Of a stretch of DNA of 64,000 nucleotides, positions 8,794-60,026 are shown piece after piece. The position numbers were made by a program, and so were the translations under genes. The notes under the pieces were generated by a model, which was given only the letters and a program-made list of their open reading frames with translations, was not told the origin of the DNA and did no database searches. The stretch comes from a virus, in the IMG/VR virus record IMGVR_UViG_3300018080_000019, positions 1 to 64,000 of that record; one strand, 5' to 3'. Numbering within the stretch: the first letter of the stretch is position 1; every line of letters begins with the position of its first letter.

Positions 8794-8809
8794 TCCATTG
8801 GAGCAAGTT

Positions 8810-21262: not shown

Positions 21263-21265
21263 AAG

Positions 21266-42807: not shown

Positions 42808-43509
42808 ATGCTCAGTAAACTTCGTACTAATGGAGCGAACCTCGATCGGCGAGTGTCTACGGATAAGATGCGGAGGTTTGCCTACGAGTATGTGGTCGAT
42901 CATAATGCTACGCAAGCAGCCATACGAGCGGGGTACAGCCGGAAGAGTGCTCGCTCCACCGGGCAGAAGCTGATTAAGAACCCCGCAATCCTCGCCTTCA
43001 TAGGTAAGATCGAACGTGAAGCTGTCGAACGCTCTGAACTCTCTACGGACCTAGTACTGCAACGACTTTACGAAGCACTTAACTGGGAAGCCAGAGACCT
43101 CACAGATGAGAACGGAATCCTCCTCCCACCCCATGAATTGCCAGACCACGTTCAGTGCCAAGTAGACACCATCACCCAGCGGGTTTTGAAGGTGACTAGT
43201 TACGAGGATGGGACTACAGAAACACTCGTGGAGACTCGTTACCGTATGGTTCCTCACGGACAGGCTCGCGATCAGGCCCTCCGGCACTTAGGCCTCATGG
43301 AACCGGAGCAACATCTACACTTGCACGAAAGCGGCCCCATCCTAGGCCGAGACTTCTATGATAAATTGTCTGAACCGCCCGAGCAAGACGGCGTCGAGTT
43401 GATCGAAGGTAAGTTCCTAGAACTCGACGAGTCTCTAAATAAACCGCCGAAGAAAAAGAAAAAGAAGCGTAGGAAGCGAGCAAAACCTAAAAGGAGGAGT
43501 GATGACTAG
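42808..43509 (+). CDS. terS: terminase small subunit
   Basis: FAYEYVVDHNATQAAIRAGYSRKSARSTGQKLIKNPAILAFI is the typical Terminase_2-type N-terminal HTH. Basic C-terminus. Confidence 0.75.
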   Translation: MLSKLRTNGANLDRRVSTDKMRRFAYEYVVDHNATQAAIRAGYSRKSARSTGQKLIKNPAILAFIGKIEREAVERSELSTDLVLQRLYEALNWEARDLTDENGILLPPHELPDHVQCQVDTITQRVLKVTSYEDGTTETLVETRYRMVPHGQARDQALRHLGLMEPEQHLHLHESGPILGRDFYDKLSEPPEQDGVELIEGKFLELDESLNKPPKKKKKKRRKRAKPKRRSDD

Positions 43510-43675: not shown

Positions 43676-44158
43676 ATGAACCGTCACAACCGTCGTAGTA
43701 TTCTGGGGATGCTCTGTTCAATTGCCTTATCCCCTTTTCTCGTAAAACCAAAGACACAGGAGCCGAAGAAGCCTGAACACTATTCACCTGTGGAATTTTT
43801 CACTTGGGTTGATAATTATAAACCCTGGACAACTTCTTCCAAGTTCAATTGTCTTGAGTACGGTGGCCCTCCCAAGAACATGATCTTCCTGGATGGTGTT
43901 GACATTTCTAGCTATGCCATCCATCGAATGATTACGGGACAGTACGGCTGGGTTGAAGTCACTATTGGAGAGGATGGTTGGCCCTTAGAATACCACAACA
44001 ACGTAAGCAGGAAAAAGCCGAAGATTAAGAACGGTCTTCCCGAAACCAAGAGGCTTTATGGCCGCGTCGATTACGTTCGTGGTCCTTGCCATTCTTCTAA
44101 GCAACCCCGCGATAAATACGGCAGGTTCGTTTCTCGGGTATACGTTATTAGAAGCTAA
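43676..44158 (+). CDS. hypothetical exported protein (Tat/Sec-like signal)
   Basis: AAGGAG upstream. The N-terminus MNRHNRRSILGMLCSIALSPFLV resembles a twin-arginine or lipoprotein-type signal. Confidence 0.45.
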   Translation: MNRHNRRSILGMLCSIALSPFLVKPKTQEPKKPEHYSPVEFFTWVDNYKPWTTSSKFNCLEYGGPPKNMIFLDGVDISSYAIHRMITGQYGWVEVTIGEDGWPLEYHNNVSRKKPKIKNGLPETKRLYGRVDYVRGPCHSSKQPRDKYGRFVSRVYVIRS

Positions 44159-46014: not shown

Positions 46015-46563
46015 ATGCCCACCCCCGGCATTATCGGCACTCGTGCAAAAGTGCCTCCGGAAAGACAGCCCCTCCAAATAGCTTTGGACTGGGAAAAGTA
46101 TTTCCAGGAGTTTCTCAGGCACCACGGCGGAAACCCGATCCTACTCATGGACGAGGCCTTGGAAGCCCCTGCTCGGTGGCTGTTCCAGGACGGTTGGACG
46201 TACAATGCCAACGACTACGCTGGACCGGAGTGGCCCCCTCCCAAGGACCCCGATGCTCTAAATGCTTTGATCCGGCATTACTGGCTAAGCCGGTTGGAGA
46301 TCGTTGCAAGGGAGCTACGGTGGATCCATGAACGGATTGAAAAACTTGAAATGCTCCAGGAAGTAAGGAGTGTTCCACTACAAGCAAAATACAGCATCCT
46401 TTCAAGTATGCGAAATGAAGACGGTAGGGAATCCTTTCGAATGACCACCGAACGAGGCCCCGTCGATTTTGAGCTACTCAACGCTCGCAAGAAGGAGCTT
46501 GAGTGGGATGTTCAGAATTGTGAAAACCACTTGGAGGAGCAAGAAGGAGTGTCAAATGTTTAG
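46015..46563 (+). CDS. hypothetical protein
   Basis: GAGGAG upstream. Lies between terL and the portal. Confidence 0.5.
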   Translation: MPTPGIIGTRAKVPPERQPLQIALDWEKYFQEFLRHHGGNPILLMDEALEAPARWLFQDGWTYNANDYAGPEWPPPKDPDALNALIRHYWLSRLEIVARELRWIHERIEKLEMLQEVRSVPLQAKYSILSSMRNEDGRESFRMTTERGPVDFELLNARKKELEWDVQNCENHLEEQEGVSNV

Positions 46564-49108
46564 AAGCATTCCAGGGTCAGGGTTCAGCATCTACGGTGGT
46601 TTCCAAGACTACGCGATGAATCAGGAGAACAGAGCCCTACTACAGAACTCCATGACTTCGAGGTCTAGGCTGCTTAGCACGGTGCTGGATCCCCGCCGAG
46701 ACATTGACAAAGAATGTGGCTACCCTGAAACGGGTTCCTTGGACGTTTACAAGTTCAAGGAGTTATACACTCGAGAACCCATCGCTGCTCGAGTGGTCAA
46801 GGTCTTGCCTGAAGAGTGTTGGGCGACTACGCCTGAAGTCTTCGAGACGGAGGACCCAGAAGAGAGTACGGCCTTTGAAAAATCCTTCGACGAGCTAATT
46901 GCTTCGTTGCGTGGGGAGCATAGCTGGTATCAGGGGGAAGAGGGGAACCCGCTTTGGGAAGCACTAAAACGAGCCGACCAACTATCGGGCATCGGTTACT
47001 TCGGCGTATTGCTGATTGGGCTCGACGACGGCCAGCCGCTCAGCAGTCCAGTGAAGGGCCTCACTGAAAAGAACTCGATGCCTCAGGCAGAAAAGCCAAA
47101 GGCAGAAAAGCCGGAGGAGCCGGAGGAGTCGAAAAAGAACGGTAAACCTCTGCCAAAATCACTCCCTAAGGAAAAAACCAAGAACGCCTCCTACGAGAAG
47201 TACGAGTTGGTTTGCAACCAGGAGAAAACGTCTAACCGCAAGGTCCTGTTCTTACGGTCGTTCGACGAAGCCCTGGTCCACATTTCCCTTTACGAAACCA
47301 ATCCCACTTCGCCGAGATATGGAATGCCGGTCCAGTATAACATCATGTTCAACGACCCACAAGAGCGAAGCACCGTGGGGATGGGAGCACCCCTGCGGAC
47401 GCAGATCGTCCACTGGACTAGGATCGTCCATATAGCGGACAACCTCGACAGTAGTGAGATATTCGGCGTTCCCAGAATGCGTCCAGTTTACAACCGACTC
47501 TACGACTTGCGGAAGTTGTATAGTGGTGATGCCGAAATGTTCTGGCAAGGAGCCTTACCAGGACTCTCATTTGAAACGCATCCCCAGCTAGGTGGCGACG
47601 TCAACATCAGTGCCGAAGATACGCGTGATGCGGTTGAACGATATTACAACGGCCTCCAAAGGTTCTTCCTCACCAGTGGTCTTTCAATCAAGTCCCTCTC
47701 TCCACAAGTCTCAGACCCTACACCCCACATCAACGCTCAGATCGAAGCGATCTGCATTGAGCTAGGCATCCCCAAACGGATTTTCATGGGTTCAGAGCGA
47801 GGGGAACTGGCAAGCGGTCAAGACAGTGGTACATGGAACGACCGGCTCCGGGCAAGGCAGAACAAGTACCTCACTCCTCGAGTCATCGTACCCCTGATCG
47901 ATCGCCTGATCCTTGTAGGTGTTCTAACTCCACCCCAAGAAGGCTATTCTGTACGGTGGCCCGATTTGGATTCCATGAGCGATATGGAGCAAGCACAAGT
48001 CGCAGGAGCAACTACGGAAGCCGTTGCCAAGTATATCCAGGGACAGGTAGAGACGCTAATCCCACCTGAGTACTTCCTCGGGGACATTCTGGGCTTCGAT
48101 AAGTCTCAAGTCGAGGAAATCCTAGAGGCTGCTTTACAAGTCCAGGAAGAACAGCAAGCCGAAGAGGAAGCTGAACGTGAAGAGGCTCTAAAGCAACTTG
48201 AGCAACTGCCTCCAGGGCAGCAGCCTCCACCTCCAGGGCAGCAACCACCTGGACAACAGCCTCCTCCAGGCAAGCAGCCCCCTGGTCAACCTCCAGTACA
48301 ACAGCAACCTCCAGGCGTTCCGCCCCCTGGCTTGCCACCGAAGGGTAAGAAGCCACCGAAGATCATTCCTAAGGAAGATAAGGTGGCAAAGAACTACGAC
48401 ACGTTCCAACAGGACGTTGACGATGTGGCTAACAAGTTGGGGTTGACCCCCGAAGAGCGGGAGGAAATGGTCGAACGGTACACAAAGGAATATAGGATTG
48501 AAAACTACAGTCCCAATCAGCCTCGTGATTCAGATGGAAAATTTGGTTCAGGTGGAGGAGGGGGTGGTGGAAAGCTGACTAAGAAACAGCAAAAACGAGT
48601 CAAGTCCCTTATGGAGGATCTAGGCTTCAGCCGGGAGGACGCTGAAGAGATTGCCCTTATGCCAGATGAAGATGAACCGGGCGACAGGGGTGGTTCTCTC
48701 GAGGATAAGGACGAGGCCATCAACGAGGGGATCGAGGAATATAAATTTCCAACCACTCTATACCACGTAGTTGAAAGCCGTAAAATCGCCGACTCAATAA
48801 AGAAGGGTGGGATCAAGGCAAAGAAGGGGGGTAAGACTGGCACTTCCCGAGGAGCATACCTCAGCGACGATCCAACTGGGGTAATACAGGCAGGTGACTT
48901 TGATCTTGGTGATCTACACATTGTAGCAGTTGATACTAGAAAACTGAAGATGCGACTGGACCCGGAGTACTATCTTGACTATACAGATGGTAGCTCAGTT
49001 CAAAGAGCTCTAAAAGCCAAAGACGAATCGCACTATGTCTACAGTCCCAAAACTATCCCAGCTTCTGCTATCAAGTCTGTGAAGAAATTCAAACCACGAG
49101 GCAACTAG
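46556..49108 (+). CDS. portal protein (DUF1073-like) with PQ-rich linker, delimiter motif and extra C-terminal domain
   Basis: ATG 46556 (MFRSIPG) with GGAG upstream. ECGYPE...YKFKELYTREPIAARVVKVLPEECW is typical of this portal family. PPGQQPP repeats at 48207-48357, the motif at 48503-48571, then a 178-aa domain. Confidence 0.7.
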   Translation: MFRSIPGSGFSIYGGFQDYAMNQENRALLQNSMTSRSRLLSTVLDPRRDIDKECGYPETGSLDVYKFKELYTREPIAARVVKVLPEECWATTPEVFETEDPEESTAFEKSFDELIASLRGEHSWYQGEEGNPLWEALKRADQLSGIGYFGVLLIGLDDGQPLSSPVKGLTEKNSMPQAEKPKAEKPEEPEESKKNGKPLPKSLPKEKTKNASYEKYELVCNQEKTSNRKVLFLRSFDEALVHISLYETNPTSPRYGMPVQYNIMFNDPQERSTVGMGAPLRTQIVHWTRIVHIADNLDSSEIFGVPRMRPVYNRLYDLRKLYSGDAEMFWQGALPGLSFETHPQLGGDVNISAEDTRDAVERYYNGLQRFFLTSGLSIKSLSPQVSDPTPHINAQIEAICIELGIPKRIFMGSERGELASGQDSGTWNDRLRARQNKYLTPRVIVPLIDRLILVGVLTPPQEGYSVRWPDLDSMSDMEQAQVAGATTEAVAKYIQGQVETLIPPEYFLGDILGFDKSQVEEILEAALQVQEEQQAEEEAEREEALKQLEQLPPGQQPPPPGQQPPGQQPPPGKQPPGQPPVQQQPPGVPPPGLPPKGKKPPKIIPKEDKVAKNYDTFQQDVDDVANKLGLTPEEREEMVERYTKEYRIENYSPNQPRDSDGKFGSGGGGGGGKLTKKQQKRVKSLMEDLGFSREDAEEIALMPDEDEPGDRGGSLEDKDEAINEGIEEYKFPTTLYHVVESRKIADSIKKGGIKAKKGGKTGTSRGAYLSDDPTGVIQAGDFDLGDLHIVAVDTRKLKMRLDPEYYLDYTDGSSVQRALKAKDESHYVYSPKTIPASAIKSVKKFKPRGN
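48503..48571 (+). repeat. delimiter peptide motif copy 1 (portal)
   Basis: NYSPNQPRDSDGKFGSGGGGGGG. Confidence 0.85.
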
Positions 49109-49109
49109 A

Positions 49110-52100
49110 ATGCCTGATCTCCTTGAACAAATCGGCTTGCGGATCCTTCGCCGTAGGTACCTTTACTCTACAGGTCTCCGGGTGATCGCGGAGAACTACC
49201 ACCCCAATCAGCCTAGGGATAGTAGAGGCCGCTTCGGTAGTGGAGGAGGAGATGGAGGTGGAAAAAGGGGGGACCAACTGGAGGTGATGAACCCAGATCT
49301 ATTTTGGGAAGAACTGCCTCCGGCTCTCGATAAGAATAGGAAACAGGTTGAAGGGATGGTAGGTAAGAACCCGGAAATCAGAAGCACGATCGAAGTCTAT
49401 ACCAGTGATGGCTATGAAGTCTTTAACGCTCAACTCCGTGAGGGCAAACCCGACCCCAAGAAAGTTAAGGAAGTGGCAAGCGCTTTCCACATTTCCGAAA
49501 GTGAAATGCAAGGGATGGTTGATGAAGGCATACCTGCCTTAGACAAGATAACCAGTCTAGACCTCGACAAACCAATCACCACTTATCGCGGTGTAGATGA
49601 GCATACAACTAATGAAATTCTCAAAGCGGCTAAGAAGGGCAAGGGTGTGACTATTTCAGACGAAGCCTTTCAGTCTACGTCAATCAACCCTGAAGTGGCT
49701 GCGACTTTTGCTGCGAGAGGGGGATCAAATGTGATTATGGAGATCACAGCAAAGCGGGGAGCTTATCTTGAAACGATTTCATACACACCTGGAGATGGTG
49801 AATTTCTATTGCCTCGGAACAGTAAACTTCGTATCGATAGCGTCCATGAGGGTGTAAAGATGAAAATCCCCGAAGGTGTGGACGTTGAAAACCCGAATGC
49901 ACCTTGGTTCAAGAAAGACATTACTGTAATTAGAGCTACACAAGTTCCGGGCAAGAAAAAGGAGGTGGTTCCAAAGAAAAAGAAGTACAAGACGGTAAAG
50001 AAGAGGTCCACCAAAAACGTAGAGAGGAAGGACACTCGCCATAAGAGATTTGTTATTGACTACTTCATTCTTGAAGAGGGGGTCGAGAACTACAATCCCA
50101 ACCAGCCCAGAGATGCACGAGGCCGCTTCGGCTCGGGCGGTGGAGGCGGAGGTGGTTCTATGTCCCCCATGAATCACAAGCGTATGAGACGCTGGACCAA
50201 GGAGGACTATGAGCAGTATCCAGGGTGGGATGGAAGCACCGGACATGAGGCCAGCTACGGTGGAGCAATCTTCAATGACGAAGGCAAAATCCTCCTACGT
50301 GAGCCTAGTCACCATTTCGACGGCTATGTATGGACCCTTCCAAAAGGTCGTTGCAACGGTCCAGACGATAATCCCGTAGATACTGCTTTACGCGAAGTCG
50401 CAGAGGAGACTGGTCACAAGGGGCAAATCACCGGCCTTGTTCCTGGTAGGTTCGAGGGTGGCACTAGTCACATGAATCTGTTCGTTATGCAGAGCCGTGG
50501 CTACAATTCCAAGCTGCGAGACAAGGAAACGCACTCCACGAAGTGGGCTACCTACGAAGAGGCGATCGACTTGGTTGGGAAGACGAAGAACCCAATCGGT
50601 CGCCGTCGAGACTTGCAAGCCGTTCACGCCGCGTTCAAAGCACGTGACTCCCTAGTTAAGAACTACCACCCCAACCAACCGCGTGATAGTCGAGGTAGGT
50701 TTGGAAGTGGTGGTTCTGGTGGGGGCGGAGGGTTGGCAAGCATCGATGTAGACAAGCCCGAGCCTATCAACGCTACACTTCTTCATGGTGGCACAGACAA
50801 AGAGGGAGACCTAGTTACTTACTACACCGACGATCGTAGTGTGGCTGAAAGCTACGTCCAAATGTCAAACGATCGGTTTGGCGAAGGGGGTGCCGTCCAT
50901 GAAAAGCAAGTCTCCATAAAGAGCCCTGCTCCTAGAGAGGAAGTGCTCAAAGAGGCAAATCGTATTGGGATTGATGTGGAAAGCGACGGTTATACCCCTG
51001 CAAGTGTCTTCGACACTGAGCTATACGATCGAACAGATGTTAAGCGGTTAGTCGCAGGACTCAGGGATAAAGGCTATGATGGGGCCGTCTTACAAGACGT
51101 TCCTTATGGTGGAGAGGGAAGCCCCGTCAACGTTGCCATTGCTTTTTCAGGGAAGGTCAAGTCCAAGTACGATCTTCCCCCCTGGCTACGGAACGTTAGG
51201 AACTGGCACCCCTCCCAACCACGTGACTACCGTGGACGTTTTGGGAGTGGAGGGGGTGCCGGAGCGGGTTTCGTCTTACCCAATCCTAACGAAGTTGAAT
51301 TCGTTAAGAACCTTCCTGGCAGTACCCACCCAAAACTCGTGCGAGACAAGGACGGTAAGTTGTGGGTAATGAAGGAAGCCCTGACTGCTGAGAAAGTGAA
51401 GCGGCTTGAGAATGAGATCGATGCTGACAATGCTTACAGGGCACTCGGCGTAGACGTTCCTCCTAGTGGGGTAGTGCTGAACCCAGAACGAAGTGACAGG
51501 GCTCACAAGTTCAGCGAATACATAGACGGCGGTCAAACCTTAGATGATTGGAAGCATGGGAAAGACAAGGCCCAGATACAAGAGATGCACGACAAGATCG
51601 GGGAACACTTCGTAGCTGATGCAACCCTAGCCAACTGGGATGTCATTGGTTTGGAAAACGACAACATCCTAATCAAGGATGGTAAGCCCTACCGTATCGA
51701 CAACGGCGGAGCCCTGCTTTATCGGGCTCAAGGTGCTCCCAAGGGTTCCAAGTTTTCAGATCAGGTCATCGAGCTAGATACCCTTCGAGACAAGGGGAAG
51801 AACTACTCCTCCGGTACAGTGTTTGGAAATCTACCCCCAGACAAAATCAACCAACAGATCGTTGATATCTCGAAGAAGAGAGCGGCGGTCCTGGAGGCTG
51901 TTAGCAACCCTAAGACCCGTGAGAAGTTGAAGGCTCGCTTCAACGACTTGAAGAGCAAGGCAAAGGTGATCAAAAAAGAGCTGGCTCCAAAGGTCAAGGG
52001 TAAGATCACAAAGCAACCGACCAGTGGGAAGCCTATAAAGTCTTCTGGTGCCAAGAAGAAAGTCACTGCTGCTACGAAAGAGAAAGCCACGGGTGAAGGG

Positions 52101-53096
52101 GTTGTGTCTGGAGCGGCCTTCGGTACGGCAGTCGGTGTCGCTAGTTATCTCCAACAGAACAAAGGTAACTCCAACTTTACAAAGGTTCAGCTCGCTAAGG
52201 TCCAGGTTTACAATCCTAACGGTATTAGCGACGGGGTGCTGAACGTGCCGAAAGCGATGATGGCTAATCCCGCAAACCTCAAGCACCTACAGAAGATCCT
52301 TCCGGCTGGAACTGTTATCAAGCTCAGTGGGAAGAAAACGAGCAAATCTAAGCTTCCTTCAGCGGTTGCCAAACGCTACGGCATCACTGTTGACTATTCA
52401 ACCATCCAGTCAGGCACAAAGTCGGCCAAGGCAAAAGCTGCGAAGAAGAGCAAGACCCTACCGTCCCACTTCGTACAGGGTGTCCATACGGGAGGATACT
52501 ACAGTACTCCAAACAAAAGCGGGAAGGTGATTGGTGGCAGTCAGGCTGAGGTTAAGTTCAAGCACTCCCTCACTTATGATGAAAAGCACGCTATAGGGAG
52601 TTGGAAGGGTTCGGCCCGTAGCATCCGTAAGAACTACGTGGAAGCCAAGAAGGGTAAGGCTACTATGAGTCCTAAGACTAAGAATATTGTAAGTGCGATA
52701 GAAAAGGCCCCCGCCCACGAAGGGATTGCTTACCGTGGGATCCATAGTAGTGGCGGTCCTAAGCATAAGGATTATGCTCACAAGCAGATGGCAGCAATTG
52801 AGAAAGCTGGGATCGGGGGGACTTGGGTAGACGATGCTCCAACAGGGTTCAGTAAGAACGCTCAAACGGGTGCTTCCTTTTCCCATGGAGACTTGCTACT
52901 CAAAGTCAAAACCAGGGGTAAGAATATGCGGAGTATTGCTAACGTTGAGAACTTTGGTGGTGAAGCTGAAATGCTCGCTCGTCCAGGCACTAAGTTCCGC
53001 ATTGTCGGTATCCAAAAAGATGTTACCGTCAAGATCCAAGGAGCAGGTCATAAGAAGAAGCATGTCAAAATGCTCGTTGAAATGGAGGAAACGTAA
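49110..53096 (+). CDS. polyvalent virion protein: ART - Nudix - unknown - kinase-like - K-rich - ART
   Basis: 1328 aa. Four delimiter motifs. See the domain features and findings below. Confidence 0.8.
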   Translation: MPDLLEQIGLRILRRRYLYSTGLRVIAENYHPNQPRDSRGRFGSGGGDGGGKRGDQLEVMNPDLFWEELPPALDKNRKQVEGMVGKNPEIRSTIEVYTSDGYEVFNAQLREGKPDPKKVKEVASAFHISESEMQGMVDEGIPALDKITSLDLDKPITTYRGVDEHTTNEILKAAKKGKGVTISDEAFQSTSINPEVAATFAARGGSNVIMEITAKRGAYLETISYTPGDGEFLLPRNSKLRIDSVHEGVKMKIPEGVDVENPNAPWFKKDITVIRATQVPGKKKEVVPKKKKYKTVKKRSTKNVERKDTRHKRFVIDYFILEEGVENYNPNQPRDARGRFGSGGGGGGGSMSPMNHKRMRRWTKEDYEQYPGWDGSTGHEASYGGAIFNDEGKILLREPSHHFDGYVWTLPKGRCNGPDDNPVDTALREVAEETGHKGQITGLVPGRFEGGTSHMNLFVMQSRGYNSKLRDKETHSTKWATYEEAIDLVGKTKNPIGRRRDLQAVHAAFKARDSLVKNYHPNQPRDSRGRFGSGGSGGGGGLASIDVDKPEPINATLLHGGTDKEGDLVTYYTDDRSVAESYVQMSNDRFGEGGAVHEKQVSIKSPAPREEVLKEANRIGIDVESDGYTPASVFDTELYDRTDVKRLVAGLRDKGYDGAVLQDVPYGGEGSPVNVAIAFSGKVKSKYDLPPWLRNVRNWHPSQPRDYRGRFGSGGGAGAGFVLPNPNEVEFVKNLPGSTHPKLVRDKDGKLWVMKEALTAEKVKRLENEIDADNAYRALGVDVPPSGVVLNPERSDRAHKFSEYIDGGQTLDDWKHGKDKAQIQEMHDKIGEHFVADATLANWDVIGLENDNILIKDGKPYRIDNGGALLYRAQGAPKGSKFSDQVIELDTLRDKGKNYSSGTVFGNLPPDKINQQIVDISKKRAAVLEAVSNPKTREKLKARFNDLKSKAKVIKKELAPKVKGKITKQPTSGKPIKSSGAKKKVTAATKEKATGEGVVSGAAFGTAVGVASYLQQNKGNSNFTKVQLAKVQVYNPNGISDGVLNVPKAMMANPANLKHLQKILPAGTVIKLSGKKTSKSKLPSAVAKRYGITVDYSTIQSGTKSAKAKAAKKSKTLPSHFVQGVHTGGYYSTPNKSGKVIGGSQAEVKFKHSLTYDEKHAIGSWKGSARSIRKNYVEAKKGKATMSPKTKNIVSAIEKAPAHEGIAYRGIHSSGGPKHKDYAHKQMAAIEKAGIGGTWVDDAPTGFSKNAQTGASFSHGDLLLKVKTRGKNMRSIANVENFGGEAEMLARPGTKFRIVGIQKDVTVKIQGAGHKKKHVKMLVEMEET
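49194..49262 (+). repeat. delimiter peptide motif copy 2
   Basis: NYHPNQPRDSRGRFGSGGGDGGG. Confidence 0.85.
49368..49850 (+). other. ADP-ribosyltransferase domain 1 (R-S-E type)
   Basis: YTSDGYEVFNAQLREG, TYRGV (49584-49592), AFQSTS (49671-49682) and GDGEFLLPR (Glu at 49800). Confidence 0.65.
50088..50156 (+). repeat. delimiter peptide motif copy 3
   Basis: NYNPNQPRDARGRFGSGGGGGGG. Confidence 0.85.
50157..50660 (+). other. Nudix hydrolase domain
   Basis: The Nudix box is GRCNGPDDNPVDTALREVAEETGH (about 50345-50416), fitting G-x5-E-x7-REUxEExGU. Confidence 0.75.
50661..50732 (+). repeat. delimiter peptide motif copy 4
   Basis: NYHPNQPRDSRGRFGSGGSGGGGG. Confidence 0.85.
51201..51269 (+). 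repeat. delimiter peptide motif copy 5
   Basis: NWHPSQPRDYRGRFGSGGGAGAG. Confidence 0.8.
51270..51810 (+). other. atypical kinase-like domain
   Basis: KLWVMKE is a candidate ATP-binding Lys. LANWDVIGLENDNILIKDGKPYRIDNGG is a D-x4-N catalytic-loop plus IDxG pattern, resembling PI3/4-kinase-like or atypical protein kinases. Confidence 0.4.
52570..53093 (+). other. ADP-ribosyltransferase domain 2 (R-S-E type)
   Basis: IAYRGI, TGFSKN and FGGEAEMLARPGTKFRIVG (ExE). Confidence 0.6.
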
Positions 53097-54439
53097 TGGG
53101 CAGACCTAACTACAGCGAAGGGCACATGCGAGAGGCTACCTTTGAGGAGCAGATGCAATATGCTACACTCACTGATGCTGAAGGCAATGTGATCCGCCCA
53201 GAGGACATCTCCTATGGAGAATTGTTAGACTGGCTTGATGAGAACGACCTGTTGGATATGACGGGCGTTCCTAAGGAAGTTGTAGCTACAGGTGAGCTCT
53301 ACAGGGGCACAGAAAATTATCACCCCAATCAGCCTAGAGATAGCCGTGGACGTTTTGGGTCTGGTGGGGGAGGGGGTGGAGGTTCCTTGAGTACGAAGGA
53401 GGGGCTCGCCGATTATGTATCTAAGAACAAAGGCAAAGCTAAGTTCACAGATTTACAACTCGCTAAGCTCGAAGTCTATAATCCTAACGGACTTAAAGGG
53501 GGTGTGGTCAATGTGCCAAAAGCGATGTTGAAGAACCCCAAGAACCGTAAGCAGTTAGAAGCTATTTTGCCAGAAGGAACCAAAATCAAGCTGAGTGGTA
53601 AGAAGGTCAGTAAGTCACAGATGTCCCCGGAGTTACGTAAGAAATACAACCTCGAGGGAAAGCCCGACGTGCCAAAAGTAGTTCAACCGAAGAAGGTGTC
53701 AAAGAAAGGGGGTGTAGATAAAGGAGCATCAACGAAGGGTGGGGTGGGTGACAACCGTACTTTGAGTAGACAAACCAAGGATACTCCAGTCAGCCCAGCT
53801 ATGATGGATAGTGCCGAGAATACGGAGTGGGCTTGTGATAACGAACCAGGAATGGCAGAGGCTGTTGGGTTCTATACAGAAGCTGGATATGACATAGTCA
53901 ACGATGGTTTGAGGACTGGAGACTGGGATCTAAGTGTGTACGGCTCTGATACAATAGAAGACATTGAGATGATGTACGACGCACCCCACGGTAAAGTGAA
54001 GTCTTGGATAAAGAAAGAAGTTGTTCATAAGCTAGATGATCTAACCTCCACAGACCTGGAGGGAGAGGGAGCCACAGTCTACCGTGGATTGGGGTCTCAT
54101 ACTGGTAAGAAGATCCTGGCTCAAGCAGAAGCTGGTGGTCACCCGGTTATAGTTGACAAAGCCTTCCAATCGACTTCTACTGATCCTGATACAGCAGCAG
54201 CGTTTTCAACTGGGACAAATATCGTGATGCAGATCACAGCAAAGCGAGGAGCATATCTCGAAGAAGTAAGTAGTAGTTCGGGCGAGTACGAATTTCTCAT
54301 GCCCCGAAAAACGAAACTCCGTGTTGACGGTGTTGATCACAATGTAACGTTGAAGACCCAAAAGTATAAGGCCGAAGACGATACGTACGAGACCGGATAT
54401 AAGAAACTGACCGTCATAAGGGCTACCCAAGTAATCTAG
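53096..54439 (+). CDS. virion-module protein: leader - delimiter motif - K-rich module - ADP-ribosyltransferase
   Basis: TAATG overlap. The ART (about 53851-54436) has FYTEAGYDIVNDGLRTG, VYRGLG, AFQSTS and GEYEFLMPR. It is a paralogue of ART domain 1. Confidence 0.75.
   Translation: MGRPNYSEGHMREATFEEQMQYATLTDAEGNVIRPEDISYGELLDWLDENDLLDMTGVPKEVVATGELYRGTENYHPNQPRDSRGRFGSGGGGGGGSLSTKEGLADYVSKNKGKAKFTDLQLAKLEVYNPNGLKGGVVNVPKAMLKNPKNRKQLEAILPEGTKIKLSGKKVSKSQMSPELRKKYNLEGKPDVPKVVQPKKVSKKGGVDKGASTKGGVGDNRTLSRQTKDTPVSPAMMDSAENTEWACDNEPGMAEAVGFYTEAGYDIVNDGLRTGDWDLSVYGSDTIEDIEMMYDAPHGKVKSWIKKEVVHKLDDLTSTDLEGEGATVYRGLGSHTGKKILAQAEAGGHPVIVDKAFQSTSTDPDTAAAFSTGTNIVMQITAKRGAYLEEVSSSSGEYEFLMPRKTKLRVDGVDHNVTLKTQKYKAEDDTYETGYKKLTVIRATQVI
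53315..53383 (+). repeat. delimiter peptide motif copy 6
   Basis: NYHPNQPRDSRGRFGSGGGGGGG. Confidence 0.85.
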
Positions 54440-54450
54440 GAGGACCTGCT

Positions 54451-54657
54451 ATGGCCCAAGATAAGTTCAGCGGTGAGTATGAAATTCTCCCAGACGACTA
54501 CGTAGAACGGGATGAGGACGGGTCAGTAGTGTGGGCAGGTCCGGCCGCTGACGTTACTGACCCAGACGTAGCTGACTGGATGGAAGAAGCGGGCTACTTC
54601 GACGAAGACGAGCTGGAAGAGACTGTAGCCACGGGCGAACTCTACGAAGAGGAATAG
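54451..54657 (+). CDS. small acidic protein, paralogue of the N-terminal leader of ORF 53096
   Basis: AGGAGG upstream. Ends ...ETVATGELYEEE, compare ...EVVATGELYRGTE at the same position of ORF 53096. Confidence 0.45.
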   Translation: MAQDKFSGEYEILPDDYVERDEDGSVVWAGPAADVTDPDVADWMEEAGYFDEDELEETVATGELYEEE

Positions 54658-54658
54658 C

Positions 54659-54970
54659 ATGAACCACATCCACCTTTGCCAAAAGATACGGTTCGACTAC
54701 GAACGTGGGGCTACCCTTGCTGACTTGTGTAAGAAGTACGGCCTCCCTTACAAGAAGCTTCGGCTGATGATCATAGAAGCAGGGGGCTCTATCCGCACTA
54801 AGCAAGAAATCGGTGATATGCAAGCCGCACCCATCCCACCACCGGAGGAGTATGAACGTCGCAAGGAAGAGGTCAGAAAAGCTGCCCTTCGGGCGAAGCG
54901 AAATCAAAGCGGTGTTCCATCACGAGGACCAGGAGTTACGGCAACTCGCGTCGTCACGTTCCCATTCTAG
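54659..54970 (+). CDS. putative HTH DNA-binding protein
   Basis: ERGATLADLCKKYGLPYKKLRLMI is HTH-like. Confidence 0.4.
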   Translation: MNHIHLCQKIRFDYERGATLADLCKKYGLPYKKLRLMIIEAGGSIRTKQEIGDMQAAPIPPPEEYERRKEEVRKAALRAKRNQSGVPSRGPGVTATRVVTFPF

Positions 54971-54981
54971 GAGGTTTGGGC

Positions 54982-55311
54982 ATGGACTTGAAAGACAGGA
55001 TAGTCTATCTGTACCAGATTGGTCGTAGCTTGGAGAAGGTCGCAGAACTGGTTGGACGTTCTGACGTTACCGTGCGAGCCGTTCTACGTAAGAGGAAAAT
55101 CCCTCTAAGAAAGCTGCCCGAATTCGTTGCTTTCTACTGTCCTACCCCTTGGGAGATTGAACGGCAGAAGGCTCTTATCAAAAAGAAGAAGCTACGTCTC
55201 AAGAAGGCCAGTGAAGGTGGACGGCCTCGCAAGTACGGTGCGATCCTAGACAACATCGTTTCCACCCATAACGTTTCAGAGTGCTTACCAGAACTTCTAG
55301 GGGAATACTGA
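54982..55311 (+). CDS. putative HTH DNA-binding protein
   Basis: ATG 54982 with AGGAGG 7 nt upstream; the track start 54976 is TTG. GRSLEKVAELVGRSDVTVRAVLRK is HTH-like. Confidence 0.45.
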   Translation: MDLKDRIVYLYQIGRSLEKVAELVGRSDVTVRAVLRKRKIPLRKLPEFVAFYCPTPWEIERQKALIKKKKLRLKKASEGGRPRKYGAILDNIVSTHNVSECLPELLGEY

Positions 55312-56552
55312 TGCCGACAGTAAAGCCCGGTGAATCTCAGAGCGACTATATGAGCCGTTGCGTTCCCTACGTAATGGCAGAAGCTGGGACCAAGAGCAAG
55401 TCACACGCTGTCGCTAAGTGTTTGGGTATGTACCGACAGGCTACCCAGAACGCTAGACGTCAACGTCCAAGTCCCTTACGACTCGATCCCAGTCGCACGA
55501 CCAGTCTGCGTCGGGCCTTTATGACGGAGATCAGTAAACGGTTGACCCTTGTCAAACGTGCCTTGCGAAAGCTGGTGGCTGAAGAGGACGTTTTCGGTTT
55601 GGCCCTTACTACCCTAAGAAACTCGAGCGTGAGAAATACACGGTGGGCCTTCCACACAACTCCCCAGCAAGTCCAACTCTTCGAAGCATGGATAAAGAAG
55701 CTACTAGCTGCGAAGCTGCTCAACGGTCACACGTTGCTCGAGGAGTTGGGTGAGGGGAAGTCTCTACCAGAGATGCTCCTCAGCGACCTTTACTGGGAAA
55801 AGTATGCTGCTTTGGGGTATGCTCAAGGGGCTGGACGCGTCTTTGATGAGACGAAGGCAAAAGCTTATGCAGGGGTGAAGTGGACTAAAGAGCAGCAAGC
55901 CTTTTACCGTGGAACAAAACAACAATTCCTTCAAAGTGCCTTCGGCCAGCCAGTAGCAAAGGAGAAACTCCAACTACTGGCGGGTCGTGTCTTCACAGAA
56001 CTCAAGGGCATCACTGACCGCATGGCACAGGTGATTACCCGAGAACTCGTAGAAGGGATGGCTCGAGGTGAAGGTCCTCATGCGATGGCCCGTCGTATGG
56101 TGAAGCAGGGTATCGGTACGAAGAAGCGGGGCATCCAGTCCAGGGCCTTGACTATCGCCCGGACCGAAATCATTCGAGCCCACGCAGAGGGGCAGTTGGA
56201 TGCCTTCGAGCAGATGGGCGTTGAGGAAATAGGGGTAGCCGTCGAATGGAGCACTAGTGGCTTTGAAGTATGCCCTGCTTGTCGAGCGATGGAAGGAGTT
56301 GTGCTTACCACGAAAGAAGCTAGGGGCCTCATCCCAAGGCACCCGAACTGTCGTTGTGCCTTTACCCCTGCTAACGTGGGAGAATCCACTAAGGGGCAGA
56401 TTCGCTCGAAGGCCAAAATCCAGGAGGCTATCGAACGGTCCATCGCTAGAGTGGGGGCCAAGAAGGACAGTCTCGCCCAAAAGAAAAAGAAGACTACTTG
56501 GGTAGGGGCTGACCGTGTAGTAAAGAAGAACCGGCCGAAGGGCATAGTCTGA
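55311..56552 (+). CDS. MuF / SPP1 gp7-like minor head (head morphogenesis) protein
   Basis: TGATG coupling at 55309-55313. ALTIARTEIIRAHAEGQLDAF...VCPACRAMEGVVL...IPRHPNCRCAF is the MuF signature. Confidence 0.8.
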   Translation: MPTVKPGESQSDYMSRCVPYVMAEAGTKSKSHAVAKCLGMYRQATQNARRQRPSPLRLDPSRTTSLRRAFMTEISKRLTLVKRALRKLVAEEDVFGLALTTLRNSSVRNTRWAFHTTPQQVQLFEAWIKKLLAAKLLNGHTLLEELGEGKSLPEMLLSDLYWEKYAALGYAQGAGRVFDETKAKAYAGVKWTKEQQAFYRGTKQQFLQSAFGQPVAKEKLQLLAGRVFTELKGITDRMAQVITRELVEGMARGEGPHAMARRMVKQGIGTKKRGIQSRALTIARTEIIRAHAEGQLDAFEQMGVEEIGVAVEWSTSGFEVCPACRAMEGVVLTTKEARGLIPRHPNCRCAFTPANVGESTKGQIRSKAKIQEAIERSIARVGAKKDSLAQKKKKTTWVGADRVVKKNRPKGIV

Positions 56553-56954: not shown

Positions 56955-59900
56955 ATGGAACGCATCCCGCTTACGCTCAACTACTCAACAGGGCACGTCC
57001 GCCGCGAACAGCTAAACGGGCGGGAGTATCTGGTGGCCCCTGTGACTCTCATTGTTCCAGGTGTTCTCAACGGTAGTCGCGGGCCGCTGCTTTATCCTCA
57101 GGAAGAAGTGGCCCGGAACCCCGAAGACTGGAACAAGATTCCGCTCTTGGTCTACCATCCAAAACACCCCCATCGCACGGGTAGTGATGCGTTTGATGAT
57201 CAGGGGGTGGGGTTCCTTAAGAACGCAAGGGCTAACGGTAAGCTGACCGCCGATGCCTGGTTCGACCTCGAACGGGTTCGTAACATTGATGCTCGTGTGC
57301 TTCTAGCTTTGGAAAACGAGCGGCCGATGGAAATCAGTACGGGGCTTGAAGTGTCTGACGAGCCCGCTGCTAACGGTGCTCACTTCAACGGTACCCCTTA
57401 TATAAGTATCGCCCGTAACTACCGACCTGACCATCTTGCGATCCTGCCTGATCAGGTTGGTGCTTGCTCTCTAACCGATGGGTGTGGTCTTATGCTCAAC
57501 AAACGATCTAAACGATCTACCCGTAACTATTCCTCCTCACAACCAAGAGATGCTCAAGGAAGATTTGGTTCTGGTGGGAGTGGTGGTAGCGGTGGGAGTG
57601 GGGGTGGTGGGGGTGGACCAAAAGCAGAGGCGGAGAAAGCGATTGCTACCCTGGAAGCAAAAGTTGGGGAACTCAAACAGTCCTTTAGTGAAGCAAAAGC
57701 GTATCGCTTAGTGGGGGAAAGAGCATCAGAGAAGGCTTGGAAGTCTCAGAGTATAACAGACCATAAAGCAGCTGCGGAAATTCACAGGCAAGGAGCTAAC
57801 AAAGCCAGCTTTGAAATCTATGAGACCAAATCAAAGAAGAAGCTTGCAGCGTTACACGGGGCTGTTGGTGAACATACACGGAAAATGAAGGCCCATGAAC
57901 GGGAAGTTAGGGAGGGAATAAAGGACAGCAAGAACAAGAGTGACTACACTGGTGACTTTTGGAGGGAATCTAGTGTCGTTAACTACTCTCCAAATCAGCC
58001 TCGAGACGCAAGGGGTAGGTTCGGTTCCGGAGGAGGCGGCGGAGGAGGGGGAGCTGCTGGTTTGGACCGTCTTCGAAAGAAGAAAGGTTTGGGGACTACT
58101 TCTAGCTACAGAGACGGGCTCAAAAAGTCTCGTACTGCTTGGATTCTATCTGGTAAGACTGGCAGTTCAAAAGAGGCTAAGGCTGCTATGAAAGCGGCTA
58201 AGGATGGTCAGCACGCTAAAGCGGCGGAACTCCACAAGAAAATAGCAGCGTCACATGAAAAAGCTGCCAGTAAATCACAACCCGGTCCTCTTCTTGGGAG
58301 TGAACTGAAAGCTGCTGAGGCCCATCGTGCCGCTGCTAGTGCTCAGAAACACTTAGCTGAACTTGCAGAGAACTACTCTCCAAGTCAACCACGCGACAGC
58401 CGTGGAAGGTTTGGTTCTGGGGGTGGTGGAGGGGGTGGTGGTTCAAGCAAGTCCATCTCCAAGCCTAAAGCTCTTCCAGCTACGGCTGATGCGGTTGCTC
58501 TACTGGTGGGTGGTACCGTGGAGAGTACGAAGCGAACTAGGTGGAAGGACAAGAAGGGTACGGTAAGCAGTACCTTCCACAAGATCAAAGTTCCTGCCAG
58601 CAAGTCAGGCTCTGCTGCAATACAGGCCCATGCTAGACTCGCCGAGCGGAAGGACATTTCCGTCACTAGCCCCCGACCTGTAGGGAGGAGCGATTGGCGG
58701 GTGAGCGTTCGCTCGAAGGATGCTTCTAAGCATATCCACTTCACATTCGGGGGTAAGCAGGCCCTCAACCGTAAGAAGACCAAGAACTACAATCCAGGAC
58801 AGCCGAGAGATTCTCGAGGTAGATTCGGGTCTGGGGGTGGTGCTGGAGGTTCAATGGCACCGCATACGGGCGATAGTGGAAGTGGTGCAAGCGGTGGAGG
58901 TACTTCAAAGAAGAGTAAGGGTAAGGACACTTCTTATAAGCCCCCTGAGATTCCCAAAGGTAGCTGGAGTGGTCCTGCCAAGACTAAGGATCTTCGCAGC
59001 AGTATCCTGAAAAAAGTTGGGGCTTCTGGTCGAAGTGCGGCTCAACACCGTGGCAAGCTGAAAATTGGCGGTGAGGAAGTGGATTCCCTTCCTTCTGAAG
59101 CGTTCAAAGGTGGGACCACCTTGATTGGTGGTCCAAATCTCAAAAAAGCCGTGAGTAAGTACGTTAGGAAGAGGGGATTCGAGTCTAAGGGGAAAGGTGT
59201 TTGGGAAGACAAGCACAAGAATCAGGTCAGAATTCACACTACGACTCTTGGGTGGGGGAAACGGAAAAGAAAAGAGACTTGGGTAGCCCTGCGTGGAGGG
59301 GCTACTAAGGGGGGCGACTTAACGAAGAACAAGTTCAATCACTCTCACGAACAGTACCACAACCACATAGGAGGTTTTAGTATGGAACTGTCCACAGAGG
59401 AAAGGGTTGAGATCATCGAGGATCTCATCGAAAATAGTTGCTGTTGGGAAGAAGAGGACCGAGCCACCCTGAACGGGTTGGAAGACAATTCCCTCGGTCG
59501 CTTAGCACAGCAACTCGACATCGATCGGGCAAACAACGCTACGATCGAACAGCAGGAAGCTGTCATCAACGCGATGCCTGAAGCCTTACGAAAGGCCAAA
59601 GGCGTCAAGGATGATGAAGAGGAAGAGGAGGAAGTAGCGGTTGACAACGAGTTGTCCGAGGAGGAGTGGCTCAGCAATGCTCCTCCGAGCATCCGCGAAG
59701 CGGTCACCTACGCTCGGAACGCTCAGGCGGCTCAGCGACAAGCCACCTTCAACAAGCTTTTGGAAGGGGCGTCCAAGGAGACCGTGAAAAAGGTCAGTCC
59801 AGCCTTGAACCGTCTCAGCCAAGAGCAGCTTGAAGCGATCGCTCTCCTGGTGGGCAACCGTAAGGCTACTCCTAAGCAGACCGACTCCCAACCGGGGGTC

Positions 59901-60026
59901 CTGGTCCCCGCACAGGGAGCCCCCGTGTACTACGGGAGCCCTGGTGGGGCAGCCACCGTGGACAACAGCGAGGACATGGAGGATCAGAACGAAATCCTCC
60001 CGCTGCCGACACCGTTGACCGCTTAA
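56955..60026 (+). CDS. prohead protease-like (DUF2213-type) N-domain - four delimited internal modules - scaffold-like C-domain
   Basis: N-terminus has LLYPQEEVARNPEDWNKIPLLVYHP...NYRPDHLAILP. Four delimiter motifs. The C-terminal 214 aa are acidic and helical, as in scaffolding proteins. Lies immediately upstream of the capsid genes. Confidence 0.6.
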   Translation: MERIPLTLNYSTGHVRREQLNGREYLVAPVTLIVPGVLNGSRGPLLYPQEEVARNPEDWNKIPLLVYHPKHPHRTGSDAFDDQGVGFLKNARANGKLTADAWFDLERVRNIDARVLLALENERPMEISTGLEVSDEPAANGAHFNGTPYISIARNYRPDHLAILPDQVGACSLTDGCGLMLNKRSKRSTRNYSSSQPRDAQGRFGSGGSGGSGGSGGGGGGPKAEAEKAIATLEAKVGELKQSFSEAKAYRLVGERASEKAWKSQSITDHKAAAEIHRQGANKASFEIYETKSKKKLAALHGAVGEHTRKMKAHEREVREGIKDSKNKSDYTGDFWRESSVVNYSPNQPRDARGRFGSGGGGGGGGAAGLDRLRKKKGLGTTSSYRDGLKKSRTAWILSGKTGSSKEAKAAMKAAKDGQHAKAAELHKKIAASHEKAASKSQPGPLLGSELKAAEAHRAAASAQKHLAELAENYSPSQPRDSRGRFGSGGGGGGGGSSKSISKPKALPATADAVALLVGGTVESTKRTRWKDKKGTVSSTFHKIKVPASKSGSAAIQAHARLAERKDISVTSPRPVGRSDWRVSVRSKDASKHIHFTFGGKQALNRKKTKNYNPGQPRDSRGRFGSGGGAGGSMAPHTGDSGSGASGGGTSKKSKGKDTSYKPPEIPKGSWSGPAKTKDLRSSILKKVGASGRSAAQHRGKLKIGGEEVDSLPSEAFKGGTTLIGGPNLKKAVSKYVRKRGFESKGKGVWEDKHKNQVRIHTTTLGWGKRKRKETWVALRGGATKGGDLTKNKFNHSHEQYHNHIGGFSMELSTEERVEIIEDLIENSCCWEEEDRATLNGLEDNSLGRLAQQLDIDRANNATIEQQEAVINAMPEALRKAKGVKDDEEEEEEVAVDNELSEEEWLSNAPPSIREAVTYARNAQAAQRQATFNKLLEGASKETVKKVSPALNRLSQEQLEAIALLVGNRKATPKQTDSQPGVLVPAQGAPVYYGSPGGAATVDNSEDMEDQNEILPLPTPLTA
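57525..57617 (+). repeat. delimiter peptide motif copy 7
   Basis: NYSSSQPRDAQGRFGSGGSGGSGGSGGGGGG. Confidence 0.8.
57981..58052 (+). repeat. delimiter peptide motif copy 8
   Basis: NYSPNQPRDARGRFGSGGGGGGGG. Confidence 0.85.
58371..58442 (+). repeat. delimiter peptide motif copy 9
   Basis: NYSPSQPRDSRGRFGSGGGGGGGG. Confidence 0.85.
58785..58850 (+). repeat. delimiter peptide motif copy 10
   Basis: NYNPGQPRDSRGRFGSGGGAGG. Confidence 0.8.
59382..60026 (+). CDS. possible nested in-frame scaffolding protein
   Basis: AGGAGG (59369-59374) lies 7 nt upstream of an in-frame ATG at 59382 (MELSTEERVEIIEDL...). Confidence 0.4.
   Translation: MELSTEERVEIIEDLIENSCCWEEEDRATLNGLEDNSLGRLAQQLDIDRANNATIEQQEAVINAMPEALRKAKGVKDDEEEEEEVAVDNELSEEEWLSNAPPSIREAVTYARNAQAAQRQATFNKLLEGASKETVKKVSPALNRLSQEQLEAIALLVGNRKATPKQTDSQPGVLVPAQGAPVYYGSPGGAATVDNSEDMEDQNEILPLPTPLTA

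Follow-up and report, generated by a model that had tools for sequence, protein, structure and literature searches.

A polyvalent protein from the head-assembly operon of an uncultured phage, with enzyme modules introduced by a conserved peptide

The viral sequence analysed here (IMG/VR record IMGVR_UViG_3300018080_000019, positions 1 to 64,000; this stretch of 64,000 nucleotides is called the window) contains an open reading frame (ORF) at 49110..53096 on the + strand, which starts with ATG and encodes a protein of 1328 amino acids (aa). Our analysis suggested that this protein is a phage polyvalent effector from the head-assembly operon, most likely loaded into the procapsid and delivered together with the DNA into the next host. 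We assign this reading a probability of about 0.7, because the gene lies in a portal, MuF and scaffold context, shares a delimiter peptide with other head genes and is tightly coupled to its neighbours, and because of the identities of its domains. Since it joins disparate enzymes in one chain and is encoded at a head-module locus, the protein is a polyvalent protein by the published definition (PMC5512222). An earlier note, made from the letters of the window alone, had proposed a polyvalent protein in the head-morphogenesis module, carrying two ADP-ribosyltransferases (ARTs), a Nudix hydrolase and a kinase-like module and cut by four delimiter motifs. The ORF and the four motif copies were confirmed in the sequence, and the polyvalent assignment was backed by profile and structure searches. 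All four enzyme modules hold in profile and Foldseek searches, but a probable third ART and the composite nature of the last unit had been missed.

Modules of the 1328-aa protein

The protein consists of a 28-aa leader, a first ART (ART1), a Nudix hydrolase, an ART-PolyVal-like domain and a composite unit of a kinase-like domain, an ~85-aa domain and a second ART (ART2), all encoded on the + strand. The leader (49110..49193), which is basic and hydrophobic, stands ahead of the first delimiter (49194..49262; core motif at aa 29-46; NYHPNQPRDSRGRFGSGGGDGGG). ART1 and a Lys-rich tail form module 1 (49263..50087), which is followed by delimiter 2 (50088..50156, aa 327-344). The Nudix domain is module 2 (50157..50660) and ends at delimiter 3 (50661..50732, aa 518-535), and the probable H-Y-D ART, module 3 (50733..51200), ends at delimiter 4 (51201..51269, aa 698-715; NWHPSQPRDYRGRFGSGGGAGAG). 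Beyond it lie the protein-kinase-like domain (module 4a, 51270..51989), a Lys-rich linker of low model confidence without a delimiter (51990..52124), the ~85-aa domain (module 4b, 52125..52379) and ART2 (module 4c, 52560..53093). The module boundaries proposed previously were correct except for the start of the last module at 52570, which is out of frame. All four delimiters fit N[YW][HN]P[NS]QPRDxRGRFGSGG, and each is followed by a Gly-rich run.

ART1 matches the Pfam family ADPrib_exo_Tox (PF03496) over aa 88-248 (E 6.4e-22, 78.3 bits versus a cut-off of 23.4). Its motifs are R160 (in YRG), S189-T190-S191 and D229-G230-E231. The family match, the Arg and the STS motif agree with the proposed R-S-E ART at the N-terminus, but the third motif is DxE and not the classical ExE. 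The ART encoded by the next gene, a 447-aa protein, is 36% identical to ART1 (E 8e-39) and has canonical STS and ExE motifs, with E-Y-E aligned to the DxE of ART1. The C-terminal 199 aa of the target match the same Pfam family above its cut-off (E 4e-7, 30.0 bits versus 23.4), which agrees with the proposed second R-S-E ART at this end. The motifs of ART2 are R1209, S1248-K-N and E1285-A-E1287, and it aligns with the type VI secretion system (T6SS) ART toxin Tre1 (6dre) across the R, S and ExE motifs. Scans of PHROG and NCBIfam returned only a weak virion-protein match for ART2.

The Nudix module matches Pfam NUDIX (PF00293) over aa 381-488 (E 7.2e-12, 45.9 bits versus a cut-off of 21.1) and also the nudix families of PHROG. 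In its Nudix box (aa 413-436), R428-E429-x2-E432-E433 (REVAEE) is intact. The domain was correctly recognised before, but the box that had been called canonical is only near-canonical when compared with GX5EX7REUXEEXGU, because the upstream Glu is replaced by Asp and one extra residue precedes R428. Pro at +16 of the Nudix box is the signature of ADP-ribose pyrophosphatases (ADPRases); here the Pro is at +9, not +16.

Module 3 (156 aa) had been described as of unknown function. This description no longer fits, since a third ART, one of the ART-PolyVal (H-Y-D) type, is probably encoded here, although the evidence is weak. It gave a sub-threshold match to Pfam ART-PolyVal (PF18760; E 0.0045, 18.2 bits versus a cut-off of 31.2). 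One close homologue, P0032 (50% identity), was found among 5.8 billion proteins. P0032 matches PF18760 with E 1e-5 and 26.8 bits, which is under the same cut-off of 31.2, and it is labelled PF18760 by its source database. No family other than PF18760 was matched by either protein. In the ART-PolyVal / Tox-ART-HYD2 clade, the His is located in strand 1, the Tyr in strand 2 and the Asp in strand 5 (PMC5512222, section 9). The candidate residues of module 3, H559 (HGG), Y571/Y572 (YYT) and D663, are kept in P0032. In the AlphaFold2 model (predicted local distance difference test, pLDDT, 81), H559 falls in predicted strand 1, Y571/Y572 in strand 2 and D663 at the end of a late strand, as read from the model with no superposition. 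The best fold match in the PDB was the ART-like NAD+ toxin MbcT (E 0.1, probability 0.63).

The kinase-like module (aa 721-960) matched no Pfam family at E<=1, including Pkinase and PI3_PI4_kinase, and no PDB sequence significantly; its profile gave one weak PDB sequence match, a choline kinase. PHROG and NCBIfam scans likewise found no family for this module, for the ~85-aa domain, for the C-terminal extension of the portal protein or for the middle modules of a 1023-aa ORF (both described below). The alignment with its 31 homologues was used for AlphaFold2 modelling (pLDDT 91; predicted template-modelling score, pTM, 0.83), and Foldseek found 529 PDB matches for the model at E<=1e-3. The best 50 of the 529 were all kinases or kinase-like proteins, among them AAK1, aminoglycoside phosphotransferase (APH), p38, AKT, Stk1 and mTOR (template-modelling score, TM, about 0.3-0.45). 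In BFVD, the top matches were phage polyproteins, the best being a portal fusion (TM 0.72), followed by PI3K/PI4K-like and Ser/Thr kinases. The module is predicted by the model to have a protein-kinase-like bilobal fold, and the earlier assignment stands.

In the alignment of 32 kinase-like sequences, columns N122, W123, D124, D144, G147 and R152 are invariant. The candidate residues in the target are K755 in strand 3, E769 in the next helix, D844 (NWD), N852 and D864 (IDNGG). D844 and D864 are invariant, and N852, just ahead of the strand 'ILI', is near-invariant. The spacing from the catalytic-loop Asp to the Asn is 8, not 5. Kinases without a C-lobe have been described in polyvalent proteins, with the C-terminal subdomain lost, a Glu before strand 2, a Gln in the last N-lobe strand and an insert between the catalytic His and Asp (PMC5512222, section 10). 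The target module retains a helical C-terminal subdomain in the AlphaFold2 model.

There is no delimiter between the kinase-like domain, the ~85-aa domain and ART2, and therefore the fourth unit is a composite two-enzyme effector of ~610 aa. The part ahead of ART2 had been taken for a Lys-rich region. A Lys-rich linker is indeed present (K+R fraction 0.24; pLDDT below 60 from module residue ~241), but the label hides the conserved ~85-aa domain (..FTKVQLAKVQVYNPNG..IKLSGKK..), which is collinear with aa 98-180 of the 447-aa neighbour and about 65% identical to it. The last 328 aa of the target as a whole are collinear with aa 98-422 of this neighbour (BLASTP, 2e-32). A local hidden Markov model search showed that P0178 and P0162 also have an ART2-like domain after a kinase-like one, again without an intervening delimiter, and that in P0178 a weak match to the ~85-aa domain lies between the two.

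The delimiter peptide and the head-assembly locus

The window contains 10 full delimiters, all on the + strand and all in four head-module genes, with none elsewhere. The target carries four of them, the 1023-aa ORF another four, and the portal protein and the 447-aa ART protein one each. A bare core, QPRDKYGRF (44102..44128, + strand), without the Gly run, lies 10 aa from the C-terminus of a 160-aa ORF (43676..44158) located between the small (phrog_51) and large terminase genes. This ORF has no family match and ends ...KQPRDKYGRFVSRVYVIRS*; it may be a small cargo or regulator using the same recognition peptide. The core motif was observed 11 times in the window versus 0 times in 100 shuffles. 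The delimiter copies are 83% identical as protein and 65% as DNA, and 63% of the codons for identical residues differ. Since identical residues are largely encoded by differing codons, selection on the delimiter acts at the peptide level. Recent DNA duplications or recombination joints as the source of the delimiters were ruled out, because the copies differ at most synonymous sites.

To see the delimiter in public data, a profile of the ten copies was searched exhaustively against 1.84 billion cluster representatives. At E<=1e-3 it matched 697 proteins, of which 102 also passed E<=1e-10; many are 1000-3000 aa long, with up to 9 copies each. The consensus over 455 motifs is h-K-Y-[SDN]-P-[DSN]-Q-P-R-D-[ED]-x-G-R-[WF]-[TG]-S-G-G-G, and in its core the R and D are conserved in 100%, the G in 100%, the R/K in 99% and the W/F in 99%. 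The median spacing between delimiters is 248 aa. Of 148 other delimiter-bearing proteins, 69 have their first copy no more than 60 aa from the N-terminus. Among the 36 top matches, Pfam found ADPrib_exo_Tox (9), Phage_Mu_F (6) and GNAT (6), together with DUF7178, ART-PolyVal, DUF2213, PARP, Zeta toxin, 2H phosphoesterase, portal, PI3_PI4_kinase, LPD1, SprT-like and Tpt1 domains. A degenerate DNA pattern showed that at least 116 IMG/VR stretches carry the delimiter, and MuF-like proteins are the commonest head component in these stretches (19/116 among the matches listed).

No Pfam or NCBIfam model covers the delimiter; PHROG 38358, annotated as function unknown, does. We found no description of the peptide in the literature searched, and text searches of the two key papers, PMC5512222 among them, gave none either. 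A tblastn search of cultured phages was made with the consensus of 21-24 aa, a query too short for significance. Other proteins of this kind gave some further observations. P0034 (1083 aa) has three delimiters, a C-terminal MuF domain and a zincin-type motif, HEIMH, in its first module; going by its sequence, a putative metallopeptidase-type motif and the delimiter coexist in one chain. Among homologues of the kinase-like module, P0001 and P0009 have a different conserved peptide, NCG[IT]G[TA]GGFQxGNTCA, ahead of the kinase-like domain, and P0023 and P0011 have degenerate delimiter-like peptides (NPYHDETGAF and HPRDPKGRF). More than one type of inter-module peptide may exist.

The order of the head module is TerS (42808..43509), TerL, portal, target, ART gene, MuF, the DUF2213/scaffold-like 1023-aa ORF, a decoration-like ORF and the capsid gene. 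The portal gene (46469..49108, + strand; Pfam Phage_portal_3, E 3.9e-22; phrog_146, 9e-55) ends directly before the target, whose ATG begins 2 nt past the portal stop codon. The single delimiter of the portal (nt ~48503-48571) stands ahead of an extra C-terminal module of ~170 aa. This extra module (48596-49105, portal aa ~710-879) had no Pfam, PHROG or NCBIfam match, and by eye its LYHVVE ... GAYLSDD ... DPEYY resembles an H-Y-[DE] ART-like pattern.

The stop codon of the target overlaps the ATG of the next gene (53096..54439, + strand). It encodes the paralogous 447-aa effector, which is built of a leader, one delimiter, the ~85-aa domain, a Lys-rich linker and an ART. The stand-alone MuF head-morphogenesis protein (55281..56552, + strand; Pfam Phage_Mu_F, 2.9e-11; phrog_758, 1e-32) has no delimiter. 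The target had been placed between portal and MuF. The portal does adjoin it, but MuF begins only after a further 2.2 kb, which hold the 447-aa ART gene and three small ORFs. These small ORFs (68, 103 and 111 aa, at 54451-55311) have no informative family matches; they could encode small head proteins or else serve as immunity or antidote genes against the ARTs.

The 1023-aa ORF (56955..60026, + strand) is directly upstream of the decoration-like and major capsid genes. A DUF2213-like domain at its N-terminus is followed by four delimiters, then by helical, Lys/Ala-rich modules and finally by an acidic scaffold-like C-terminus. Close relatives all share His68, Ser128, Asp159-His160 and two Cys of the DUF2213-like domain; no PDB sequence matched this domain. 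A distant DUF2213 homologue, gp7 of Salmonella phage ES18, occupies the scaffold position. DUF2213 is also paired with the delimiter in P0063, P0151, P0079, P0045 and P0176.

The target is identical to P0033, a singleton protein encoded on a metagenomic contig of 70,232 bp. Megablast of the target gene against cultured phages gave no match, and the nearest cultured portal proteins, those of haloarchaeal tailed viruses among them, are only 23-28% identical. A word-index search with the whole protein, whose list was swamped by low-complexity candidates, yielded just two proteins, the target and a MuF protein that also has the delimiter.

Other genes in the window are those for a tape-measure protein, a family A DNA polymerase, a UvrD-like helicase and a primase, as well as thymidylate-synthase-like genes. 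At 8798-12570, 34907-36487 and 37497-38882 there are two methyltransferase-domain ORFs, an asparagine-synthase-type amidotransferase and a thymidylate-synthase-like protein. One of the methyltransferase ORFs (806 aa, 8798-11218) additionally carries a glycosyltransferase domain, and the thymidylate-synthase-like protein is unusually long at 461 aa. Judged from the predicted genes, this set suggests DNA base hypermodification in the phage. ARAGORN reported one tRNA-like gene at 21265-21342 (- strand) with the undetermined two-base anticodon '(at)'.

Partners of the kinase-like family in other genomes

The kinase-like domain is repeatedly found with the other enzymes of the target. Among metagenomic homologues, it is fused to an ART in P0002, P0004 and P0029 and to a Nudix domain in P0019 and P0021. 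The stand-alone homologue P0008 is encoded beside an ADPrib_exo_Tox gene and near a MuF gene. Among cultured phages, gp109 of Aeromonas phage ST4 (1177 aa) carries the kinase-like domain, and a NUDIX gene lies two genes downstream. R-S-E-type ART motifs were read at the C-terminus of this protein by eye and from the record annotation; Pfam detected none. One homologue of the family gives a weak HipA_C match.

A scan of cellular genomes found 80 loci of the kinase-like family (L124-L203). These loci are enriched in host-associated bacteria, namely Chlamydiae (Parachlamydia/Protochlamydia), Endozoicomonas, Rickettsiales and the Pseudomonas syringae complex. Endozoicomonas has several kinase-like copies per genome, and one family member, P0030, comes from a eukaryotic transcriptome. 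Our results suggest that the family is also used as a secreted effector against eukaryotic hosts. The domain is joined to MuF and an ART in Thioalkalivibrio, to MuF in Methyloversatilis and to a Scabin-like ART in Endozoicomonas.

In the P. syringae complex (P. cerasi and P. tremae), proteins of 715-718 aa combine the kinase-like domain with NUDIX and have the N-terminal ART motifs YRG, SAST and EHE. The loci of the complex are L156:5137-7281, L170:5194-7347, L165 and L181, and the kinase-like family is 34-36% identical in these proteins over the best tblastn segment. An N-terminal ART and a C-terminal NUDIX domain have been described for the type III effector HopAG1 (PMC9963460). The 715-718-aa proteins are probably HopAG1, a name that is unconfirmed. 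An annotated plasmid copy and an upstream hrp box were looked for and not found; a consensus hrp box was present only downstream of the ORF. If the proteins are HopAG1, their central region would be a kinase-like domain that the PNAS 2023 paper does not mention, and we found no paper linking HopAG1 with a kinase. The ART, kinase-like and Nudix domains recur together across unrelated delivery systems, which suggests a functional partnership and not chance assortment.

Proposed role and alternatives

According to the gene context and published analogies (PMC5512222, PMC9503650), the protein would enter the procapsid and then be delivered to the next host along with the DNA. On the same grounds, its targets may be those put forward in the earlier note, namely host RNA polymerase, translation factors or NAD-derived signals. 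Each unit is introduced by the conserved YxPxQPRDxxGR[FW] peptide and its flexible Gly-rich run. The head-assembly machinery may recognise the delimiter, either as a site of maturation cleavage, by which the enzymes would be released from one another and from the portal or other carriers, or as a signal for docking or packaging. Once the next cell is infected, the enzymes may act jointly on NAD+-derived chemistry. The ARTs would ADP-ribosylate host macromolecules, and the Nudix domain would cut ADP-ribose-type pyrophosphate bonds, either in free signals derived from NAD or ADP-ribose or in target-attached ADP-ribose. The kinase-like domain might phosphorylate or nucleotide-modify a common target, or regulate its partner ART.

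Several observations weigh against this proposal. The contig comes from an uncultured phage, is a singleton and has no close relative among cultured phages. In ART1, Asp replaces the first Glu of ExE, and the STS motif of ART2 is degenerate (S1248-K-N). Module 3 misses the Pfam threshold for ART-PolyVal and its fold match is weak (E 0.1), while the residues of the kinase-like module were assigned by motif position in modelled secondary structure, not by superposition. No protease family, gp21/S77-type or other, was detected among the head-module ORFs, and no HExxH occurs in the head-module proteins save an isolated HEQYH at aa 798 of the 1023-aa ORF. DUF2213 was considered as the missing prohead protease and rejected, because the candidate Ser is replaced in ES18 gp7 and DUF2213 is present in only 6/116 delimiter-bearing stretches among the matches listed. 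An in-cis zincin metallopeptidase was also rejected, since that same isolated HEQYH is the sole HExxH in the target and its neighbours. The bare core that ends the 160-aa ORF beside the terminase genes suits docking better than cleavage.

If the delimiters are proteolytic maturation sites, a head protease or autocatalysis would cut at or near YxPxQPRDxxGRF and would free the 28-aa leader, four separate enzymes and the cargos attached to portal, MuF or scaffold, as the capsid-targeting sequences of T4 are cut by gp21. The delimiters sit exactly at domain boundaries with the median spacing given above, and they stand between carrier and cargo (the portal here; MuF, portal and DUF2213 elsewhere). 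A cargo covalently tied to the portal could not leave without cutting, which supports cleavage, as do the short N-terminal leaders before the first delimiter (in 69/148 proteins) and an earlier proposal that polyvalent proteins are processed (PMC5512222, section 8). However, no protease was identified at the locus, the near-invariant motif of 15 residues is far more conserved than typical prohead-protease sites, and it is hard to see what a cut so close to the end of the 160-aa ORF (10 aa) would achieve. We consider cleavage a serious contender, at somewhat under even odds. Alternatively, the delimiters would remain uncut, the core being a docking or packaging peptide that binds MuF, portal, scaffold or terminase and the Gly run a tether, so that the chain would enter and leave the head whole, like beads on a string. 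The near-invariance of the core over 455 motifs, the copy of the core that lacks a Gly run and lies at the C-terminal end of the small ORF flanked by TerS and TerL, and the frequency of MuF-like proteins in delimiter-bearing stretches are consistent with this, and polyvalent proteins of the N4 virion RNA polymerase type are packaged unprocessed (PMC5512222, section 8). But head-integral carriers such as the portal and MuF fusions carry the peptide though they need no docking, and no binding partner was identified; docking alone seems rather doubtful to us. It is much less probable still, though conceivable, that the protein is not packaged and works as a late-expressed cytoplasmic polyprotein modifying the producing cell or the phage's own components. 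Packaging is deduced from gene position only, which would leave room for this idea, but the delimiter is common to the portal and the scaffold-position ORF, other phages have homologous modules in fusions with portal and MuF, and the target gene is tightly coupled to the portal gene.

The activity of the modules can also be read differently. The protein could be a phage-borne polymorphic toxin for inter-bacterial competition, with the small downstream ORFs as immunity genes, and not a factor for host takeover or anti-defence. ARTs of the R-S-E type are classical toxins, ART2 can be aligned to Tre1 of the T6SS, and the second ART gene is separated from MuF by three small ORFs (68, 103 and 111 aa); ART toxins linked to MuF and paired with immunity proteins have been published (PMC5576092, PMC11699363). 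We regard this as improbable: the MuF domain is in a separate polypeptide, the small ORFs belong to no recognised immunity family, and no lysogeny genes were found among the scanned window ORFs. A more tenable alternative, which we still rank as tentative and somewhat against the odds, concerns the kinase-like module alone. It may not be a protein kinase but a regulator or non-canonical transferase, for example a glutamylase or AMPylase with a pseudokinase fold, that acts on ADP-ribose or on the ART to which it is fused, or else a small-molecule kinase resembling APH or choline kinase. Enzymes of the kinase fold can glutamylate or AMPylate, as SidJ and SelO do. The domain occurs repeatedly beside an ART or Nudix domain and is here joined to ART2 without a delimiter; its fold matches include aminoglycoside phosphotransferase and PI3K/PI4K-like lipid kinases; choline kinase and HipA_C (the latter for a homologue) appeared as weak sequence matches; and its Asp-Asn spacing is 8 rather than 5. 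On the other side, the five phosphotransfer positions (Lys, Glu, Asp, Asn and Asp) are filled and nearly invariant in 32 sequences, which fits ATP-dependent phosphotransfer.

Comparison with known systems is consistent with a polyvalent effector of the head operon. The polyvalent proteins of phages and conjugative elements were described by Iyer, Burroughs, Anand, de Souza and Aravind in 2017 (PMC5512222). Like them, the target has several unrelated enzymes per chain, including ART-PolyVal-like, kinase-superfamily and nucleotide-directed domains, is encoded in a portal/terminase/MuF module and is predicted to be delivered with DNA. Unlike them, it uses a conserved delimiter peptide and has no detectable zincin metallopeptidase, which is the hub domain of the class. 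R-S-E ARTs were said to be absent from genuine polyvalent proteins (PMC5512222), whereas the target has two, and ADPrib_exo_Tox is the commonest Pfam family in the delimiter-bearing proteins examined. The T4 protein Alt is similar in being an R-S-E ART encoded with virion genes, and the target leader is plausibly removable (PMC5512222, PMC9503650). In contrast, Alt is a single enzyme encoded beside baseplate genes, the leader and delimiter of the target show no relation to its targeting sequence and gp21 site, and the head-module ORFs here yielded no protease of the gp21 type.

MuF-fused polymorphic toxins (Jamet et al. 2017, PMC5576092) also tie toxin-type enzymes to MuF head proteins, and relatives with kinase-like and ART domains are fused directly to MuF in prophage-like loci of Thioalkalivibrio and Methyloversatilis. 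The target is not a strict MuF toxin, because its MuF is a separate gene 2.2 kb downstream and has no delimiter. The P. syringae-complex proteins share the combination of R-S-E ART, kinase-like and Nudix domains, but as a single 715-aa chain without delimiters, encoded on a bacterial chromosome and, if they are HopAG1, delivered by type III secretion. For NAD+ and ADP-ribose enzymes of virions, Iyer et al. 2022 (PMC9503650) describes ARTs and Nudix proteins encoded among head genes or fused to MuF, portal or capsid protease, which is similar to our case, and proposes that they are injected and modify host macromolecules or destroy NAD-derived signals. The passages retrieved from this survey by a search for kinases mention no kinase-like partner of ART or Nudix, and phage Nudix domains are typically stand-alone according to it, unlike in the target. 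In conclusion, the protein class is known; the delimiter peptide and the recurring kinase-like, ART and Nudix partnership appear undescribed.

The two undescribed elements could be read jointly, with the delimiter as a general cargo signal and ART, kinase-like and Nudix domains as a conserved three-enzyme pathway; both holding together is, in our view, rather unlikely. In that case the delimiter could be a universal encapsidation, processing or release tag of tailed phages, portable among portal, MuF, scaffold-position and free effectors. The pathway could operate in virions of phages, in MuF toxins of prophages and in effectors secreted by P. syringae, Chlamydiae and Endozoicomonas. Its three enzymes would then not act independently of one another, and its product could be, for example, a phosphoribosyl or phosphorylated ADP-ribosyl mark resistant to host hydrolases.

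The target itself corrects the published picture, since it shows that a polyvalent protein can contain R-S-E ARTs. Should the delimiter prove to be a general tag for packaging or processing, it would provide a sequence rule for finding capsid-delivered effectors in any metagenome, which 697 protein clusters already match, and a handle for loading foreign proteins into phage heads. The kinase-like domain accompanies ARTs and Nudix domains in phages, MuF prophage fusions and effector-like proteins, which points to a shared, uncharacterised NAD+-dependent modification pathway.

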